DNA of 64,000 nt. Origin: Patescibacteria group bacterium. Its GTDB lineage: Bacteria; Patescibacteriota; Minisyncoccia; Phycocordibacterales; Zambryskibacteraceae. Shown here one piece after another: positions 2,500 to 64,000 of this stretch. The stretch lies in the NCBI GenBank assembly GCA_004322205.1, contig SCSN01000008.1, forward strand, positions 18,370 to 82,369. The letters run 5' to 3'. The notes beneath the pieces were generated by a model. The model made no database searches and was not told the origin of the DNA. It saw nothing but the letters and a program-made list of their open reading frames with translations. The translations under genes and the position numbers were made by a program. Positions within the stretch are counted from its first letter, which is position 1, and every line of letters starts with the position of its first letter.

Positions 2500-4350
2500 C
2501 TAAACGCCAAGCACTACAGGGATGACGATAGGGCGCTTGGCGGTTTTTTGGAAGAGAAAACGGCTGACCGCGTCGTTGACGTTTGCTTTGACGAAGTCGA
2601 AGTTAATGGGGTTCATGCCGAAGGTAGCTTTCTCGATCGTTCGCTTAATAATGAGCCGGGTTTGCGAAAGCAGTTCCTGTGATTCGCGCAGATAGACAAA
2701 GCCGCGCGAAATTATATCCGGAGATTTCTTGAGCTTGCCGGTTTTGATGTCAATGGTTGCGACAATGACGACAAAGCCGTCCTCGGCAAGCATCTTGCGG
2801 TCTCGCATCACCACTTCTTGGACGTTGCCGATGGAAAAACCGTCAACCAGGACAGGGCTAGAGGGCGCCGATTCTTTGAGTTTGACGAGTCTTTTACCCT
2901 CATCTTGAATCTCGATGACCATGCCGTTGTCGGGGACGATGATATTCTCCGGTGTTATTCCGAGAGAGAGCGCCACTTCTTCGTGAACGCGGAGCATGTA
3001 GTGGGTGCCGTGGATGGGGATAAAGAAACGCGGATGAATTTTTCTGTGAAGCCATTCGAGCTCGCCGCGGTTGCCGTGCCCGGTTGAGTGAATATAGACG
3101 TCGGAGGTGCGGTAGTGGATGATCTTGGCCCCTTGCCGAGCAAGGTTGTCTTTGAGTTTCTGCACCGCCCTTTCATTGCCGGGAATGATGGAGGAAGAAA
3201 GAAGAACCGTATCATTTTTAGTGATCTTGACGTACTTGTGGCTTTTGAGAGACATTCGCATCAGGGCGGCGAATTCGTCGCCTTGGGCGCCGGTGGCGAG
3301 AATAATGATTTTGTCTGGAGGGTATCTCTCCATCACTTCTGGCATAATAATGGTGTCAGGTTTAACTTTGAGTCTGCCGACCTTAGCGGCGATTTCAACG
3401 TTGGTTTTCATGCTGCGCCCTTCAACCACCACCTTTTTGTCGTAGCGCTCGGCGCTCTCGATAATTGCAACGACGCGCTCAATTTGTGAGGCGAAGGTGC
3501 CGATGATAAGGCGGCGCTTGGTGGTGCGAATGATTTCGTCCAAATTTTTGTGGACGAGACTCTCCGGAGTGGACCAGCCGGGATTTTCAACATTAGTTGA
3601 GTCCATCATCAGGAGAAGAACATTTGCATTTTCAAAAATTGAATACTCTTCCTCCTCTGCTTCCGTTGGCACACCATCGACGTGATCAAGCTTGATGTCG
3701 CCGGGATTAACGATCCAGCCTTGGGGAGTCTCAATGATAATGCCCATCGATTCAGGGATGGTATGGGTAACGGCAAAAAAGCGCACCTTGAGATTGCCGA
3801 CGCTGATATGGTCCTCTTTTTCAACCATCCGCAGATCAAGAGCGGGAAGATGAGGAAATTCCTCCTGGCGCTTGCGAATCATGATGGAAGTGAGAAAGCG
3901 GGTGTAGATGGGAGGGTTGCCGATCCGGTTCATTATGTAAGGGATAGCGCCGATATGGTCGAGGTGTCCGTGGGTGATGATGAGGGCGCGCACTTTGTCT
4001 TTGCGCTCTTCGAGGTATTTGGTGTTGGGCAGGATATAGTCAATGCCCGGCGTGTCTTCCTCGCGGAACTGAAAACCGGCATCAAGGACAATAATGTCGT
4101 TGCCGTACTCGACTACCGTCATATTCTTGCCGATTTCCTCAACTCCGCCCAGGGGGATGATGCGGATACTGTCGCCAGCCGGAGGAATCTTTTCTTCTTC
4201 CGGTCGTGTTGCGATCTGCCTCTGCGTCCCACGCATCGGACGGCGCGGACGCCGGAGCATTCCCATGCCGCGCACTCGAAGGTTTGGAGCTTGGCGGGGG
4301 CGCAGCCGGGTGATGTGTTGAGAGAAAGAATCTTGGTGTTGTGGGTTCAT
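2500..4350 (-). CDS. rnj: ribonuclease J
   Basis: Metallo-beta-lactamase HxHxDH motif (ITHGHLDHIG) with beta-CASP and RNase J C-terminal regions. Also carries a basic N-terminal extension of roughly 60 aa. Confidence 0.9.
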   Translation of the reverse strand: MNPQHQDSFSQHITRLRPRQAPNLRVRGMGMLRRPRRPMRGTQRQIATRPEEEKIPPAGDSIRIIPLGGVEEIGKNMTVVEYGNDIIVLDAGFQFREEDTPGIDYILPNTKYLEERKDKVRALIITHGHLDHIGAIPYIMNRIGNPPIYTRFLTSIMIRKRQEEFPHLPALDLRMVEKEDHISVGNLKVRFFAVTHTIPESMGIIIETPQGWIVNPGDIKLDHVDGVPTEAEEEEYSIFENANVLLLMMDSTNVENPGWSTPESLVHKNLDEIIRTTKRRLIIGTFASQIERVVAIIESAERYDKKVVVEGRSMKTNVEIAAKVGRLKVKPDTIIMPEVMERYPPDKIIILATGAQGDEFAALMRMSLKSHKYVKITKNDTVLLSSSIIPGNERAVQKLKDNLARQGAKIIHYRTSDVYIHSTGHGNRGELEWLHRKIHPRFFIPIHGTHYMLRVHEEVALSLGITPENIIVPDNGMVIEIQDEGKRLVKLKESAPSSPVLVDGFSIGNVQEVVMRDRKMLAEDGFVVIVATIDIKTGKLKKSPDIISRGFVYLRESQELLSQTRLIIKRTIEKATFGMNPINFDFVKANVNDAVSRFLFQKTAKRPIVIPVVLGV

Positions 4351-25128: not shown

Positions 25129-25815
25129 ATGTTGGAACTTCAGGTTGAAAAGAGAGAAAAAGCAGGAAAAGTCGAAGGATTGCGCCGAGGAGGCGTGATG
25201 CCGGCAGTTCTCTATGGTAAAAAACAATCCTCGATACCAATTTCAATTTCCTACCGTGATTTTTTGAAGGTTTGGAAGAAGGCGGGAGAGTCGGCGGTGG
25301 TGACGCTCAAGGAGAAGGACGGGAAAACCTTTGACGCCCTGATTCACGATGTTGATATTGATCCGGTAACGGGAAGCCCGCGCCACGCGGACTTTTATGT
25401 TTTTGAAGCGGGACACAGGGTGAGAGTGTCGGTGCCTCTTGAATTCGTAGGTGTTGCCCCCGGCGTAAAAGACCACGGCGGTCTCTTGGTAAAAGTTTTG
25501 CACGAGTTTAAAGTTGAAGCGATGCCAAAAGATTTGCCGGTTCAGCTTGAAGTGGACATCTCCAAACTTGAAGCTATCGGCAATCAACTGCTCGCCAAAG
25601 ATATTGCTATGCCTGCCGGTGTAACAGCGCTTGAAAGTCCAGATGAGATCACGGCACTCGTTGCCGAGCCGAAGAAAGAGAAGGAAGAAGCTCCCGCCGA
25701 GCCGGTTGATCTCTCTGCTATTGAAGTTGAGAAGAAGGGAAAGGAAAAAGAAGGAGAGGAGGAGACAGCTCCAGGGAAAGCCTCAGGAGAAGTGGCAAAA
25801 AAAGCAGAGAAGTGA
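25129..25815 (+). CDS. rplY: ribosomal protein L25 / general stress protein Ctc
   Basis: MLELQVEKREKAGK...GGVMPAVLYG...HDVDIDPVTG pattern, with an acidic and lysine-rich C-terminal tail. Confidence 0.9.
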   Translation: MLELQVEKREKAGKVEGLRRGGVMPAVLYGKKQSSIPISISYRDFLKVWKKAGESAVVTLKEKDGKTFDALIHDVDIDPVTGSPRHADFYVFEAGHRVRVSVPLEFVGVAPGVKDHGGLLVKVLHEFKVEAMPKDLPVQLEVDISKLEAIGNQLLAKDIAMPAGVTALESPDEITALVAEPKKEKEEAPAEPVDLSAIEVEKKGKEKEGEEETAPGKASGEVAKKAEK

Positions 25816-28416: not shown

Positions 28417-28517
28417 TCGGGGTGCAGGGCTTTCGGCAAGGTTTGAACGTAAAGATCGAAGCGCGAAAATTTCGCGGGAAACACAGAAAAAGCAAGAAAC
28501 CATGAAACTCTCCTTTC

Positions 28518-28543
28518 TTAGTCTATCATATATGATAGACTAA
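28518..28543. repeat. palindrome family member 2 (TTAGTCTATCATATATGATAGACTAA, perfect 26 bp)
   Basis: Perfect palindrome about 100 nt upstream of rpmE. Confidence 0.55.
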
Positions 28544-28650
28544 GCGTGCAAAAGACAAGAAAGTTTAAGAAAACTGTTGGATTCGCGGCGATAGGTGTAG
28601 GTCAAGTGCCACCCTTGCTTTTTATTTTAAGATTGTTATATTCAGCTCGC

Positions 28651-32648: not shown

Positions 32649-32672
32649 TAATGTATCATATATGATACATTA
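32649..32672. repeat. palindrome family member 3 (TAATGTATCATATATGATACATTA, perfect 24 bp)
   Basis: Between the RNHCP gene and the GH1 gene. Confidence 0.55.
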
Positions 32673-60572: not shown

Positions 60573-61514
60573 GTGAATTCCATGGCAAATCGTCATCTGG
60601 CGCGATCGGTCGTTCTCCAGTCTCTTTTTGAGTGGGACTTCGGAGGTAAGCCCAATAAAAAAAAAGAGGCGATGTTGATCTTTCGGCGCAACGTTCAGGA
60701 ATTTGCGCCGGGGATAAAGGATGTCTCTTTCATGGAATCGCTCATGGAGAGTGTGCTTGCTAAGAGCAAAGACCTTGACACTATAATATCTACTGCCGCC
60801 CCGGATTGGCCGCTTGAAAAGATAGCGGTTGTTGACCGCAATGTTCTGCGCATCGGTCTCTACGAACTTTTGTTTGCGGATCGCAGCGAAGTGCCGCCCA
60901 AAGTTGCCATCAACGAAGCCATCGAGCTTGCCAAAACATTCGGCGGTGAGACCTCGGGAAAATTTGTCAATGGCGTCTTGGGGGCGGTCTACAAGGAGAT
61001 GGGCGAGCCGGGGAGGGATGAGAGGAGTTCGAAGAAAAAAAACGCTAATGATATCCCCGACGACCAGGCGCCGGTGGAGAATTTGGGCGGAGCCGTTGTC
61101 TATGCGGAGGAGGGAAAAAAAATCTTTGTTGCTCTGGTTCATGACGTCTTCGGGCACTGGACGCTCTCGAAAGGAAAGCTCGAGGCGGGAGAAGATGTGG
61201 AGGCAGGTACGGTTCGGGAGGTCAAGGAGGAGATTGGACTCGACGTCACCCCCGAAGATGACTTGGGTGTCAATGAATATATTGCCTTTCCTCCGGACAA
61301 AGGAAAAATCAAAAAGCGCGTCCATTACTTTTTAGCTCGCTCCGATTTTCAGCCGCTTCAGCTCGAGTCGCAGGGAGGACTTGATAACGCCCGCTGGTTT
61401 GCACTTGACGAGGTGGCGGAGCTTAATTTCTACGATGATATTGTTCCTCTGATTACCAAGGCGATCCAGATTCTGGGGCGAAAAAGTTCGCGGGCGAAGC
61501 GAAAAAATGAGTGA
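60573..61514 (+). CDS. nusB: NusB antitermination factor fused to a C-terminal NUDIX hydrolase domain
   Basis: NusB core from residues 1-140 (RHLARSVVLQSLFEWDF ... NGVLGAVYKE), then a NUDIX box GKLEAGEDVEAGTVREVKEEIGL. Confidence 0.8.
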   Translation: MNSMANRHLARSVVLQSLFEWDFGGKPNKKKEAMLIFRRNVQEFAPGIKDVSFMESLMESVLAKSKDLDTIISTAAPDWPLEKIAVVDRNVLRIGLYELLFADRSEVPPKVAINEAIELAKTFGGETSGKFVNGVLGAVYKEMGEPGRDERSSKKKNANDIPDDQAPVENLGGAVVYAEEGKKIFVALVHDVFGHWTLSKGKLEAGEDVEAGTVREVKEEIGLDVTPEDDLGVNEYIAFPPDKGKIKKRVHYFLARSDFQPLQLESQGGLDNARWFALDEVAELNFYDDIVPLITKAIQILGRKSSRAKRKNE

Positions 61515-62223
61515 GATTCATAACAAAGAAAAAATGAACATTGATCAATTTGAGAAAAAAGCGAGGGTGATTTTCCAAGACAAAAATCTCCTCGGGCAAG
61601 CTTTTGTTCATCGCTCGTATCTCAATGAGAATCGTGATTTTCCCCTTGGGCACAATGAACGGTTGGAGTTTTTAGGCGATGCGGTGCTTGAGCTGGTTAC
61701 TACGGAATATCTCTATCGCAAATACCCGGACAAAACAGAAGGTGAGATGACCTCACTGCGCTCCGCTCTAGTCAATGCCAATACGCTCTATGTTGTAGGG
61801 GTCAATCTCGGGGTAAATGACTATTTGCTTCTCTCCCGTGGGGAGACGAAGGATACAGGCAGAGCGCGGCAGTATATTCTGGCCAACACGATTGAGGCGA
61901 TAATCGGAGCGGTCTATTTGGACCAAGGGTACGAAACGGCGAAGAAGTTTATTTACGAACACATCACGCCGCTCATTGAAAAAATTATTTCTGAAGGTAG
62001 CTGGATTGATGCCAAGAGCCGTTTTCAGGAACAGGCACAGGACGTTGTCGGTGTCACTCCTCTCTACAAAACGCTCAAGGAAATTGGTCCCGACCATGAT
62101 AAACACTTCACGGTTGGAGTTTATCTTGGAAGCGAGCTTATAGCAGAGGGTGAAGGGGACTCCAAGCAGAATGCCGAGCAGGAAGCGGCGCGCCGGGCGT
62201 CACGAGCAAAAGATTGGGAATGA
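61507..62223 (+). CDS. rnc: ribonuclease III
   Basis: NERLEFLGDAVLELV signature plus a C-terminal dsRBD. Confidence 0.9.
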   Translation: MSEIHNKEKMNIDQFEKKARVIFQDKNLLGQAFVHRSYLNENRDFPLGHNERLEFLGDAVLELVTTEYLYRKYPDKTEGEMTSLRSALVNANTLYVVGVNLGVNDYLLLSRGETKDTGRARQYILANTIEAIIGAVYLDQGYETAKKFIYEHITPLIEKIISEGSWIDAKSRFQEQAQDVVGVTPLYKTLKEIGPDHDKHFTVGVYLGSELIAEGEGDSKQNAEQEAARRASRAKDWE

Positions 62224-62257
62224 TAGACCCCCCACATACCACGCCTTTTAATATGTC

Positions 62258-62302
62258 GAAATAAAGGTTCCTCGGGGCTGCCCCGAGGAACCTTTATTTT
62301 TC
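62258..62302. terminator. bidirectional intrinsic terminator (15-bp perfect arms)
   Basis: AAAGGTTCCTCGGGG-CTG-CCCCGAGGAACCTTT flanked by A and T tracts. Confidence 0.75.
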
Positions 62303-62413
62303 TACTGCGAGCTCGCTTTTCATGTATTTGCCCAAAGCGAGAACTTCATTCGCCATTCCTTTGGCGATTGCTCCGAGAAGCAAATCGCGTCTCTCCGACG
62401 TCATCTCGGACAT
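62294..62413 (-). CDS. small ORF (39 aa, amphipathic), translationally coupled to the upstream small ORF
   Basis: MSEMTSERRDLLLGAIAKGMANEVLALGKYMKSELAVEK. ATG sits 2 nt after the TGA of the 49-aa ORF. Not in the ORF track because it is shorter than 60 aa. Confidence 0.3.
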   Translation of the reverse strand: MSEMTSERRDLLLGAIAKGMANEVLALGKYMKSELAVEK

Positions 62414-62415
62414 GG

Positions 62416-62565
62416 TCACTCGCATCCTCTCTTTGTCTCAGTTTCAGGCGGTTTCGCCCGGGAGTCGTTGGGCGGCCGCAGAAGCCATCGCCCCGTGAGG
62501 TAGAGCACGTAGGCGATTACAACGACGATCCAGATAACGATGACAGCCCGGCTTTCGTCAGACAT
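62416..62565 (-). CDS. small hydrophobic membrane peptide (49 aa)
   Basis: MSDESRAVIVIWIVVVIAYVLYLTGRWLLRPP... GGAGGA RBS 5 nt upstream, with a TTGACG-16-TATCAT promoter at 62597-62624 on the minus strand. Confidence 0.4.
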   Translation of the reverse strand: MSDESRAVIVIWIVVVIAYVLYLTGRWLLRPPNDSRAKPPETETKRGCE

Positions 62566-62596
62566 AATCGCTCCTCCGTTGTGCGTATCTATTTTA

Positions 62597-62624
62597 ATGA
62601 TACCACCTCGCGAGTTTTCGTCAA
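62597..62624 (-). promoter_or_regulatory. minus-strand promoter TTGACG-16-TATCAT
   Basis: Read on the minus strand. Overlapped by a GTTTCAGAAAC near-palindrome. Confidence 0.4.
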
Positions 62625-62630
62625 GTTTCT

Positions 62631-62688
62631 GAAACAAAAACCCCGCCCGGAGCTGAAACTCTTTCGAGTCAACTGCGGCGGGGGAGCA
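62631..62688 (-). terminator. minus-strand intrinsic terminator after the 52-aa ORF
   Basis: CCCCGCC ... GGCGGGG stem with an inner GACTC-GAAA-GAGTT hairpin, then a TTTTTGTTTC run on the minus strand. Confidence 0.45.
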
Positions 62689-62772
62689 ACTTTCAAGACG
62701 TGCTCAGGTCTGCGCGTTGTTTCAGAAATGTCCTTGATGTGGGGCGAGAACAGCCGGAGCTCGCTTGTTCTA

Positions 62773-62931
62773 TTAGACTCGACGCCGCTTCCACCTAATC
62801 AGAAGTACAAGTCCGAACAGTGCGAGCGGGATAGATAACCAGTACGAGGGCGGAGGGTCCGGCACCCGTGGCGCGTCCGCTTGGATGATAACCCCAAGCA
62901 CTTCCGCGACATGCTTCAAGAATAACGTCAT
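62773..62931 (-). CDS. small ORF (52 aa) ending in a TM helix plus RWKRRRV basic tail
   Basis: MTLFLKHVAEVLGVIIQADAPRVPDPPPSYWLSIPLALFGLVLLIRWKRRRV. The C-terminus resembles a PEP-CTERM/LPXTG-type sorting tail without a passenger domain. Confidence 0.3.
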   Translation of the reverse strand: MTLFLKHVAEVLGVIIQADAPRVPDPPPSYWLSIPLALFGLVLLIRWKRRRV

Positions 62932-63100
62932 ACTACACCCCTGTGTTTGTGGTAAGTTTTCCAGCTGTTCAGATCTTTTTAAAAAATATCATATTTAATT
63001 TATACAGTCAATAACTATTCCCTGTTCAAAAACGGCTCAAAATAGTGATAGAATTGATGACGACCCTGTATTTAACTTTCAAGCTTTTTAACTTTACACA

Positions 63101-64000
63101 ATGCTCCTGAAATCCATAGAACTTCACGGCTTTAAGTCCTTCCCGAGGAAAAGCCTTTTTGAGTTTATTTCTCCTATTTCGGCGGTTGTCGGTCCGAATG
63201 GAAGCGGTAAATCAAACGTGGCGGAAGCATTTCAGTTTGTGCTCGGAGAACAGTCTATCAAGTCCCTGCGCGGGAAAAAAGGAGAGGATTTAATCTGGAA
63301 CGGCGGGGCTGATTTCCCGCGTGCCAACCGCGCTTCCGTCAAGGTTCTGCTTGACAACAGCAATAAATTTTTAAACATTGATTTTCCCGAAGTTGCCATC
63401 GAGCGCGTTGTGCACCGCGATGGAGTCAATGAGTACATCGTAAACGGCAGCCAGGTGCGCTTGCGTGACATCATTGAGCTTCTCGCTCCGGCTCACATTG
63501 GCGCCTCGGGGCACCATATTATTTCTCAAGGTGAGGCGGATCGGGTTCTTTCTGCCAACCCTCGCGAGCGGCGGGAAATGATCGAAGATGCTCTGGGGCT
63601 AAAGATTTACCAATACAAGCGACAAGAGAGCGAGCGGAAGCTCGAAAAAACCCTCGAAAACATTTCTCAAGTTGACGCTCTGCGAAAAGAAATTGCTCCG
63701 CATCTGCGATTTCTCAAAAAGCAGGCGGAGAAAATCGAGAAGGCGGCGGAGCTCAAAGAGCGGCTCAAAACTTTTGCCAAGAAGTATTTGAAACGAGAAT
63801 CGTGCTACCTCGAGTGGCTCAAGCGAGAGATTGAAAAAACGAAACGCCCGCTTGAAGCGAAAAAAGCGGCGCTTGAGCGAGAGCTTAACGAGGCGAGGCG
63901 GGTTCTTGAGCAGTCGAAAATGAGAGACGCCAAGAGCGACGAGGTGGTTTCACTTGAAGGGAAAATTCAATCACTGCGGAAAAGGAAAGACGGACTCTTG
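63101..64000 (+). CDS. smc: chromosome segregation protein SMC (N-terminal part, runs off the window)
   Basis: MLLKSIELHGFKSF ... GPNGSGKSN Walker A, followed by coiled coil. No stop before position 64000. Confidence 0.85.
   Translation, partial: MLLKSIELHGFKSFPRKSLFEFISPISAVVGPNGSGKSNVAEAFQFVLGEQSIKSLRGKKGEDLIWNGGADFPRANRASVKVLLDNSNKFLNIDFPEVAIERVVHRDGVNEYIVNGSQVRLRDIIELLAPAHIGASGHHIISQGEADRVLSANPRERREMIEDALGLKIYQYKRQESERKLEKTLENISQVDALRKEIAPHLRFLKKQAEKIEKAAELKERLKTFAKKYLKRESCYLEWLKREIEKTKRPLEAKKAALERELNEARRVLEQSKMRDAKSDEVVSLEGKIQSLRKRKDGLL

Follow-up and report, generated by a model that had tools for sequence, protein, structure and literature searches.

Sequence analysis of a 64,000-nucleotide (nt) stretch from an uncultured Patescibacteria group bacterium (contig SCSN01000008.1, positions 18,370 to 82,369; hereafter the window, to which all coordinates refer) found that the genes rnc and smc are separated by a spacer of 877 nt (62224-63100), which contains three small open reading frames (ORFs) on the minus strand: ORF1 of 52 amino acids (aa; 62773-62931), ORF2 of 49 aa (62416-62565) and ORF3 of 39 aa (62294-62413). 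An earlier note on this DNA, the initial annotation, had proposed such a cluster, and direct reading of the sequence confirmed all three ORFs. Our preferred reading, to which we assign a probability of roughly 0.48, is that the spacer is a lineage-specific insert carrying an orphan small-protein operon, ORF2-ORF3, and one further and doubtful gene, ORF1. The odds that ORF2 and ORF3 are real genes are somewhat better than even; for ORF1 they fall short of even. The insert would split the rnc-smc pair into separate units, with rnc gaining a terminator and smc gaining a promoter.

The ORF2-ORF3 operon is favoured because its signals are correctly ordered and oriented, a Shine-Dalgarno (SD) sequence lies at optimal spacing, the codon scores and the hydrophobic helix of ORF2 agree with it, and ORF2 has been called as a gene by NCBI.

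The putative ORF2-ORF3 operon

The promoter described upstream of ORF2 was recovered by the signal scan as TTGACG-16-(TG)TATCAT (62597-62624, minus strand), with 10/12 matches and a TG extension. Transcription from it would give a leader of about 25 nt that holds the SD sequence GGAGGA, which was read from the sequence at 62577-62572 on the minus strand, 6 nt before the ORF2 ATG, as in the initial annotation. ORF2 and ORF3 would follow, and the unit would end at a bidirectional terminator at 62259-62299. This element is a 41-nt palindrome forming a perfect hairpin with 20-nt arms that are 100% complementary (-31.8 kcal/mol, z = -6.5), and since runs of A and T lie on both sides of it, it can terminate the convergent rnc and ORF3. 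The perfect bidirectional terminator reported to close the unit is therefore present and is shared with rnc, and the TAA of ORF3 is located within one of its arms. Long perfect hairpins were also found after other genes in the window and after rnc in close relatives; they are the normal terminator style of this genome.

ORF2 (MSDESRAVIVIWIVVVIAYVLYLTGRWLLRPPNDSRAKPPETETKRGCE) is composed of six polar residues, a 19-residue helix AVIVIWIVVVIAYVLYLTG, the residues RW and a 24-residue tail rich in proline and charge. Its description as strongly hydrophobic held, with a mean Kyte-Doolittle hydropathy of 2.62 over 19 residues, and it is predicted to be a single-pass membrane peptide, probably with N-out/C-in topology because the basic residues come after the helix. 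ORF3 (MSEMTSERRDLLLGAIAKGMANEVLALGKYMKSELAVEK) starts at an ATG at 62413, two bases past the TGA of ORF2, in agreement with the TGA-CC-ATG junction noted earlier, and its translation would begin by termination-reinitiation at this point; a second possible ATG at 62425 would give a product of 43 aa. AlphaFold2, run on the single sequence, predicted one helix over residues 6-38 (pLDDT 94.7), which supports the amphipathic peptide first proposed, and ORF3 may accordingly be pictured as a single cytoplasmic amphipathic helix. The possibility that ORF2 and ORF3 are one frameshifted gene was also considered, and the two frames fit one indel near 62426-62440. The analysis establishes the anatomy, the signals, the gene-like codon usage of ORF2 and ORF3, the lack of homologues and the variable nature of the junction, while the expression, membrane topology and translational coupling of the pair, like any physiological role, are inferred.

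ORF2 was already found in GenBank as a 73-aa hypothetical protein with a TTG start (TAL49238.1 / EPN83_01735, Patescibacteria group bacterium). The initial annotation had stated that none of the three ORFs appears in the ORF track, which is incorrect for ORF2, since it is present there as part of this 73-aa TTG-start ORF. The 49-aa ATG form with its perfect SD is the better model, because the predicted promoter at 62624-62597 lies inside the 73-aa version, downstream of the TTG. An SD-like motif was observed in only about 8 of the 46 long genes of the window and is thus a minority trait; the genes that have it carry AGGAG at a spacing of 5-7 nt, the same as ORF2.

Coding potential was assessed with a codon log-likelihood score trained on the long ORFs of the window, for which 45-codon fragments of real genes gave 0.16 ± 0.10 and off-frame control ORFs -0.10 ± 0.11. 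ORF3 scored 0.25, a persuasive value topped by 0.4% of the off-frame controls, and ORF2 scored 0.135, topped by 4% of them, which is supportive; both values lie in the range obtained for the real-gene fragments. The score of ORF1 was ambiguous (0.027), and that of an antisense 156-aa ORF running across the region on the plus strand was -0.02. When intergenic gaps were scanned, ORF2 and ORF3 alone exceeded the score threshold within the rnc-smc spacer.

The same three ORFs could be chance products of a non-coding spacer with nothing in it but a terminator for rnc, a promoter for smc and leftovers of an old insertion, from which no peptide is made. This is the main rival reading; we regard it as unlikely, though well short of negligible, and a number of results weigh on its side and against the preferred reading. 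By themselves the number and length of the ORFs are not significant: when the 877-nt spacer was shuffled with its dinucleotides preserved, three ATG-started ORFs of at least 39 aa on one strand occurred in 8% of cases, and the summed ORF length was matched in 14%. The codon score of ORF2 is not decisive, because spurious ORFs of 43-45 aa overlapping real genes reach 0.09-0.13. ORF1 has no SD, and its codon usage is ambiguous and like that of non-coding sequence; the SD-like run closest to the ORF3 ATG is 12 nt away. In relatives, moreover, unrelated inserts have accumulated at the junction.

Homologue searches weigh in the same direction. A search of ORF1, ORF2 and ORF3 against 5.8 billion protein clusters retrieved only ORF2 itself, the cluster of which is a singleton, and neither exact look-ups nor this cluster search found a called gene product for ORF1 or ORF3 in the collections searched. 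When 1.84 billion representatives were scanned in full with HMMER, no true homologue of ORF3 emerged; the lone match, a 1528-aa BIG2-like repeat protein, was rejected as spurious, as it aligned through its repeats. No homologue of ORF1-3 was found by tblastn against 161 rnc loci, and nothing was found for ORF1 and ORF2 in viral contigs. The DNA-level homologue searches covered rnc neighbourhoods, and the protein databases under-sample such short peptides because they are often not called as genes. The nearest rnc sequences were 78% identical in the genome scan and 76% in the metagenome scan, and with an rnc identity of at most 78% all relatives are too distant to share the insert. Homologous small ORFs at the same position in relatives, which the initial annotation had suggested looking for, were absent from 160 syntenic loci; what was missing was the whole insert, and broken frames were not seen. 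The lack of conserved reading frames that the same note had named as evidence against the genes was formally found, because the whole insert is missing from every relative available.

Pfam, NCBIfam, PADLOC and PHROGs returned nothing meaningful for ORF1-3, toxin, defence and phage families included, and no paralogues or repeated motif were found within the window. A mobile-element origin was considered and not supported, as phage and plasmid collections contained nothing that matched the spacer by blastn.

Against a non-coding spacer stand the codon scores of ORF2 and ORF3, the helix of ORF2 and the perfect SD-ATG spacing past a promoter-like site, which are jointly improbable by chance; an ORF with at least 15/19 hydrophobic residues, as in ORF2, arose in only 0.6% of shuffles (P~0.006). 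There is no homology trace to the gap genes of relatives, and so no recognisable pseudogene. The genome is compact, and a gene-free stretch of 877 nt would be unusual because the remaining window is densely coding.

The small hydrophobic ORF2 had also been likened to a type I toxin. Divergently transcribed type I pairs include tisB/istR-1, shoB/ohsC and zorO/orzO, and we know of no type I-like toxin module described in Patescibacteria. In such a module ORF2 would damage the membrane and be repressed by an antisense RNA from 62540-62568 on the plus strand, with ORF3 as an accessory; we consider this improbable. At 62540-62568 (plus strand) the sequence contains a promoter-like ATGACA-17-CATAAT with 10/12 matches, from which a speculative antisense transcript would begin opposite the ORF2 ribosome site, and the plus-strand RNA of 62570-62700 is structured (z = -3.1). 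Fozo et al. 2010 (PMC2887945) described type I toxins as peptides shorter than 70 aa that have one transmembrane (TM) region, with a tryptophan and a polar or charged cluster C-terminal to it, and whose genes lie in long intergenic regions. ORF2 agrees with this description in its size, its one TM region followed by W and a charged/polar tail, and its enlarged intergenic region, so that the toxin-like layout seen at first, with a small peptide, one TM helix and a polar/aromatic C-terminus, stands in part; the part that failed is homology to known toxin families. ORF1-3 match none in Pfam, NCBIfam or PADLOC, and ORF2 differs from Hok, Ldr/Fst, TisB, ZorO and similar toxins in having no similarity to Hok, Ldr/Fst, TisB, Ibs, ShoB, TxpA or BsrG, in a 24-residue C-terminal tail that is longer than in most of them, and in its coupled downstream ORF, which is foreign to known type I loci. 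No tandem duplication was found in the window, and the antisense RNA is a consensus match whose plus strand has a hairpin without a U run and hence no terminator. The fuller proposal, that ORF2 is a type I-like toxin of the candidate phyla radiation (CPR) with a divergent antisense RNA and a co-translated helical ORF3, gained at a hot spot between rnc and smc, would have a slimmer chance still; if it were true, ORF2 would be a new toxin family.

ORF1 and the elements around its terminator

ORF1 (MTLFLKHVAEVLGVIIQADAPRVPDPPPSYWLSIPLALFGLVLLIRWKRRRV) would form a second and weaker transcription unit, made of a promoter at 63011-62983, the ORF with its helix, PPP, TM and polybasic parts, and a terminator at 62684-62632. 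The promoter-like sequence upstream of ORF1 is TTGACT-17-TATTTT (62983-63011, minus strand; 9/12 matches). That ORF1 has its own terminator, as the initial annotation had put forward, was borne out by the signal scan and folding, which located a hairpin at about 62684-62632 on the minus strand, CCCCGCC...GGCGGGG with an inner GAAA-loop stem, followed by UUUUUGUUU. A further promoter-like site, TTCAAA-18-(TG)TAGAAT, was placed before smc by the signal scan (63025-63054, plus strand). Four promoter-like sites in all were counted in 1.3 kb, versus an expected 1.0 ± 1.2.

The peptide encoded by ORF1 consists of an N-terminal amphipathic helix, a proline-rich linker (PRVPDPPPS), a C-terminal hydrophobic helix and an RWKRRRV tail. 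AlphaFold2 predicted helices at residues 2-19 and 30-51 (pLDDT 70), with the proline-rich linker at low confidence. The C-terminus had been compared to PEP-CTERM and LPXTG sorting tails with almost no passenger domain. The near absence of a passenger is correct, as just 22 residues stand ahead of the VPDPPPS motif. The comparison with LPXTG has to be dropped, for the motif reads VPDPPPS and no LPXTG or variant is present. The likeness to PEP-CTERM extends to the three-part layout only, with zero Pfam or NCBIfam matches at E <= 10, the PEP-CTERM profile (Pfam PF07589 / NCBIfam TIGR02595) and any other sorting-domain model of these libraries included.

On the strength of this layout ORF1 could belong to a PEP-CTERM-like sorting system of the exosortase type, either as a minimal substrate or as what is left of the C-terminus of a larger one, with VPDPPPS as the recognition motif; we think this has little chance of being right. 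VPDPPPS-YWLSIPLALFGLVLLI-RWKRRRV reproduces the three parts of such signals, namely a proline-containing motif, a hydrophobic helix and an arginine-rich cluster. Two secreted proteins are encoded in the rnc-smc gap of the relative L017, at 2076-2924 (282 aa) and 3099-3842 (247 aa), both on its plus strand, and both close with VPTPSAV followed by a TM helix and YRRR(R)SR, a PEP-CTERM-like tail that is possibly a sorting signal of this clade not described before. The 282-aa protein, like ORF1, matched nothing in Pfam or NCBIfam at E <= 10, and the L017 genes lie on the opposite strand and are not detectably homologous to ORF1. ORF1 further differs from PEP-CTERM proteins in having neither a passenger domain nor a convincing signal peptide, as its N-terminal amphipathic helix holds K6, H7 and E10 and has no n-h-c pattern. 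Pfam scans of 30 window proteins revealed no exosortase or sortase. Within the 64-kb window such a tail is unique to ORF1, and only 3 were found in 1 Mb of the relatives' loci (two in L017 and one weak in L070). The ambiguous codon usage of ORF1 also speaks against this explanation.

Around the ORF1 terminator, a perfect 12-nt inverted repeat (TTTCTGAAACAA / TTGTTTCAGAAA) was found at 62626-62728 on the minus strand, with arms at 62626-62637 and 62717-62728. Each arm contains a palindrome of the GTTTC-N-GAAAC type, and the 3' arm runs right up to the -35 box from which ORF2 would be transcribed. The two GTTTC-N-GAAAC sites of the initial annotation therefore exist, one perfect (62625-62635) and one with one mismatch (62719-62729); they do not flank the promoter as it had said, since the two form the arms of the inverted repeat and precede the -35 box.

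The functional element of the spacer might then be this 103-nt unit, acting as RNA or operator, and not the ORFs, although we give this a low likelihood. As RNA, the 12-bp outer stem round the terminator hairpin would make a structured small RNA or a 3'-untranslated region (UTR) element; as operator, the two GTTTC-N-GAAAC arms would be bound by a dimeric protein regulating the neighbouring ORF2 promoter, whose -35 box one arm abuts. The perfect 12-nt inverted pair is unique in the window, versus 0.72 matches expected at <=1 mismatch, and the 111-nt fold that includes it has a stability of -41.6 kcal/mol (z = -3.2), most of which is explained by the ordinary terminator. No second copy of the repeat was found in the window or in the 161 loci, and the window shows no enrichment of the GTTTCNGAAAC motif when one mismatch is allowed (5 versus 3.5 expected). 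Rfam 15 gave nothing at gathering score in the spacer, the whole-window scan returning tRNAs elsewhere, and at E <= 10 it gave no family for the unit; the only models that matched the spacer at this level were microRNA and small-RNA models on the terminator hairpin, which are spurious. ARAGORN found nothing in the spacer.

Elsewhere in the window, two perfect intergenic palindromes, CTTAGTCTATCATATATGATAGACTAAG and TAATGTATCATATATGATACATTA, are located at 28517-28544 and 32649-32672; they have a common core, TATCATATATGATA, and may be operators of one dimeric regulator.

The rnc-smc junction in the window and in related genomes

The local gene order is rnhB, rpmF, a nusB-NUDIX fusion, rnc, the 877-nt spacer and smc. 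The 5' flank of the spacer is rnc, encoding RNase III (61507-62223, plus strand; 238-aa ORF), and its downstream flank is the 5' part of smc (63101-64000, plus strand), which has its ATG at 63101 and the translation MLLKSIELHGFKSFP... The fusion gene (60573-61514, plus strand) encodes a 313-aa NusB with a C-terminal NUDIX hydrolase domain, and its end overlaps the start of rnc by 8 nt. The cluster of small ORFs had been called GC-rich, which was not upheld: local GC is 0.48-0.575 versus 0.45-0.59 in the flanking genes, and the composition of the spacer is the same as that of the genome. The divergent region at 62900-63099 is AT-rich, with a GC of 0.335.

A total of 161 loci were fetched for comparison, and in 137 of them smc follows rnc in the same orientation. 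The rnc orthologues were 60-78% identical in 160 loci, the closest, in collections of metagenomes and of one genome per species, being metagenome-assembled genomes (MAGs) of Paceibacteria/Zambryskibacteria type, and the N-terminus of smc showed 48-76% identity to its counterparts in the 137 loci. The spacer was <=60 nt in 63/137 loci, often 5-30 nt and operon-like, 60-300 nt in 26/137 and >300 nt in 48/137. In the 48 long spacers at least 25 gene families were counted, located on one strand or the other and unrelated among themselves; they include a recurrent one of 195-203 aa on the plus strand, a Cys-rich one of 565 aa, and one of 108-129 aa on the minus strand, found in the nearest relatives. 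Close relatives also have unrelated convergent small genes in the gap, and in the closest subclade a hairpin terminator regularly follows rnc and a TATAAT-type box stands just upstream of smc. The junction is thus an insertion hot spot in Paceibacteria, and the 877-nt spacer appears to be one more lineage-specific filling of it.

A decayed copy of the relatives' gap genes was searched for with tblastn and with a hidden Markov model (HMM) of the 108-129-aa family on six frames, and no trace was obtained. Two imperfect 12-nt direct copies, one at each end of the spacer (62240-62251 / 63080-63091; CACGCCTTTTAA / CAAGCTTTTTAA), were likewise considered as a target-site duplication. This was rejected, and the repeat is probably due to chance, because relatives have no such site after rnc and the right copy lies in the partly conserved smc leader.

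Only one other contig with an identical rnc was found, L081 (Logan SRR8426596), for whose rnc protein Pfam Ribonuclease_3/dsrm is listed. It stops 69 nt past rnc, at about 62292, inside the 41-nt palindrome, and this end is probably a de Bruijn-graph break and not strain variation.

Many start codons in the window are located 5-12 nt past a TATAAT-like box, for example those at 25129, 32727, 33875, 38431 and 39299, and the same was seen for smc in relatives, with TGGTATAAT 8-10 nt ahead of the ATG. The closeness of these boxes to the starts, together with the few SD sequences (about 8 of 46), suggests that leaderless or very short-leader mRNAs may be widespread.

Orphan small membrane proteins and implications

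Bacterial small membrane proteins include AcrZ, KdpF and MgtS. ORF2 resembles the orphan members of this class in having less than 50 aa, one TM helix and its own promoter, ribosome site and terminator, and, like them, it has been missed or mis-started by annotation and has no detectable homologues outside a narrow lineage. It differs in being coupled to a second, soluble helical peptide and in having no partner complex or regulon to which it could be assigned.

If expressed, ORF2-ORF3 would be one more orphan small-protein pair in a CPR genome. Such small proteins are usually missed or mis-started, and the GenBank start of ORF2, which lies upstream of its own predicted promoter, is a case in point. 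Present understanding would stay as it is unless expression and a phenotype were shown. The rnc-smc junction may offer a natural site at which to study how reduced genomes gain genes, or how genes arise in them de novo.

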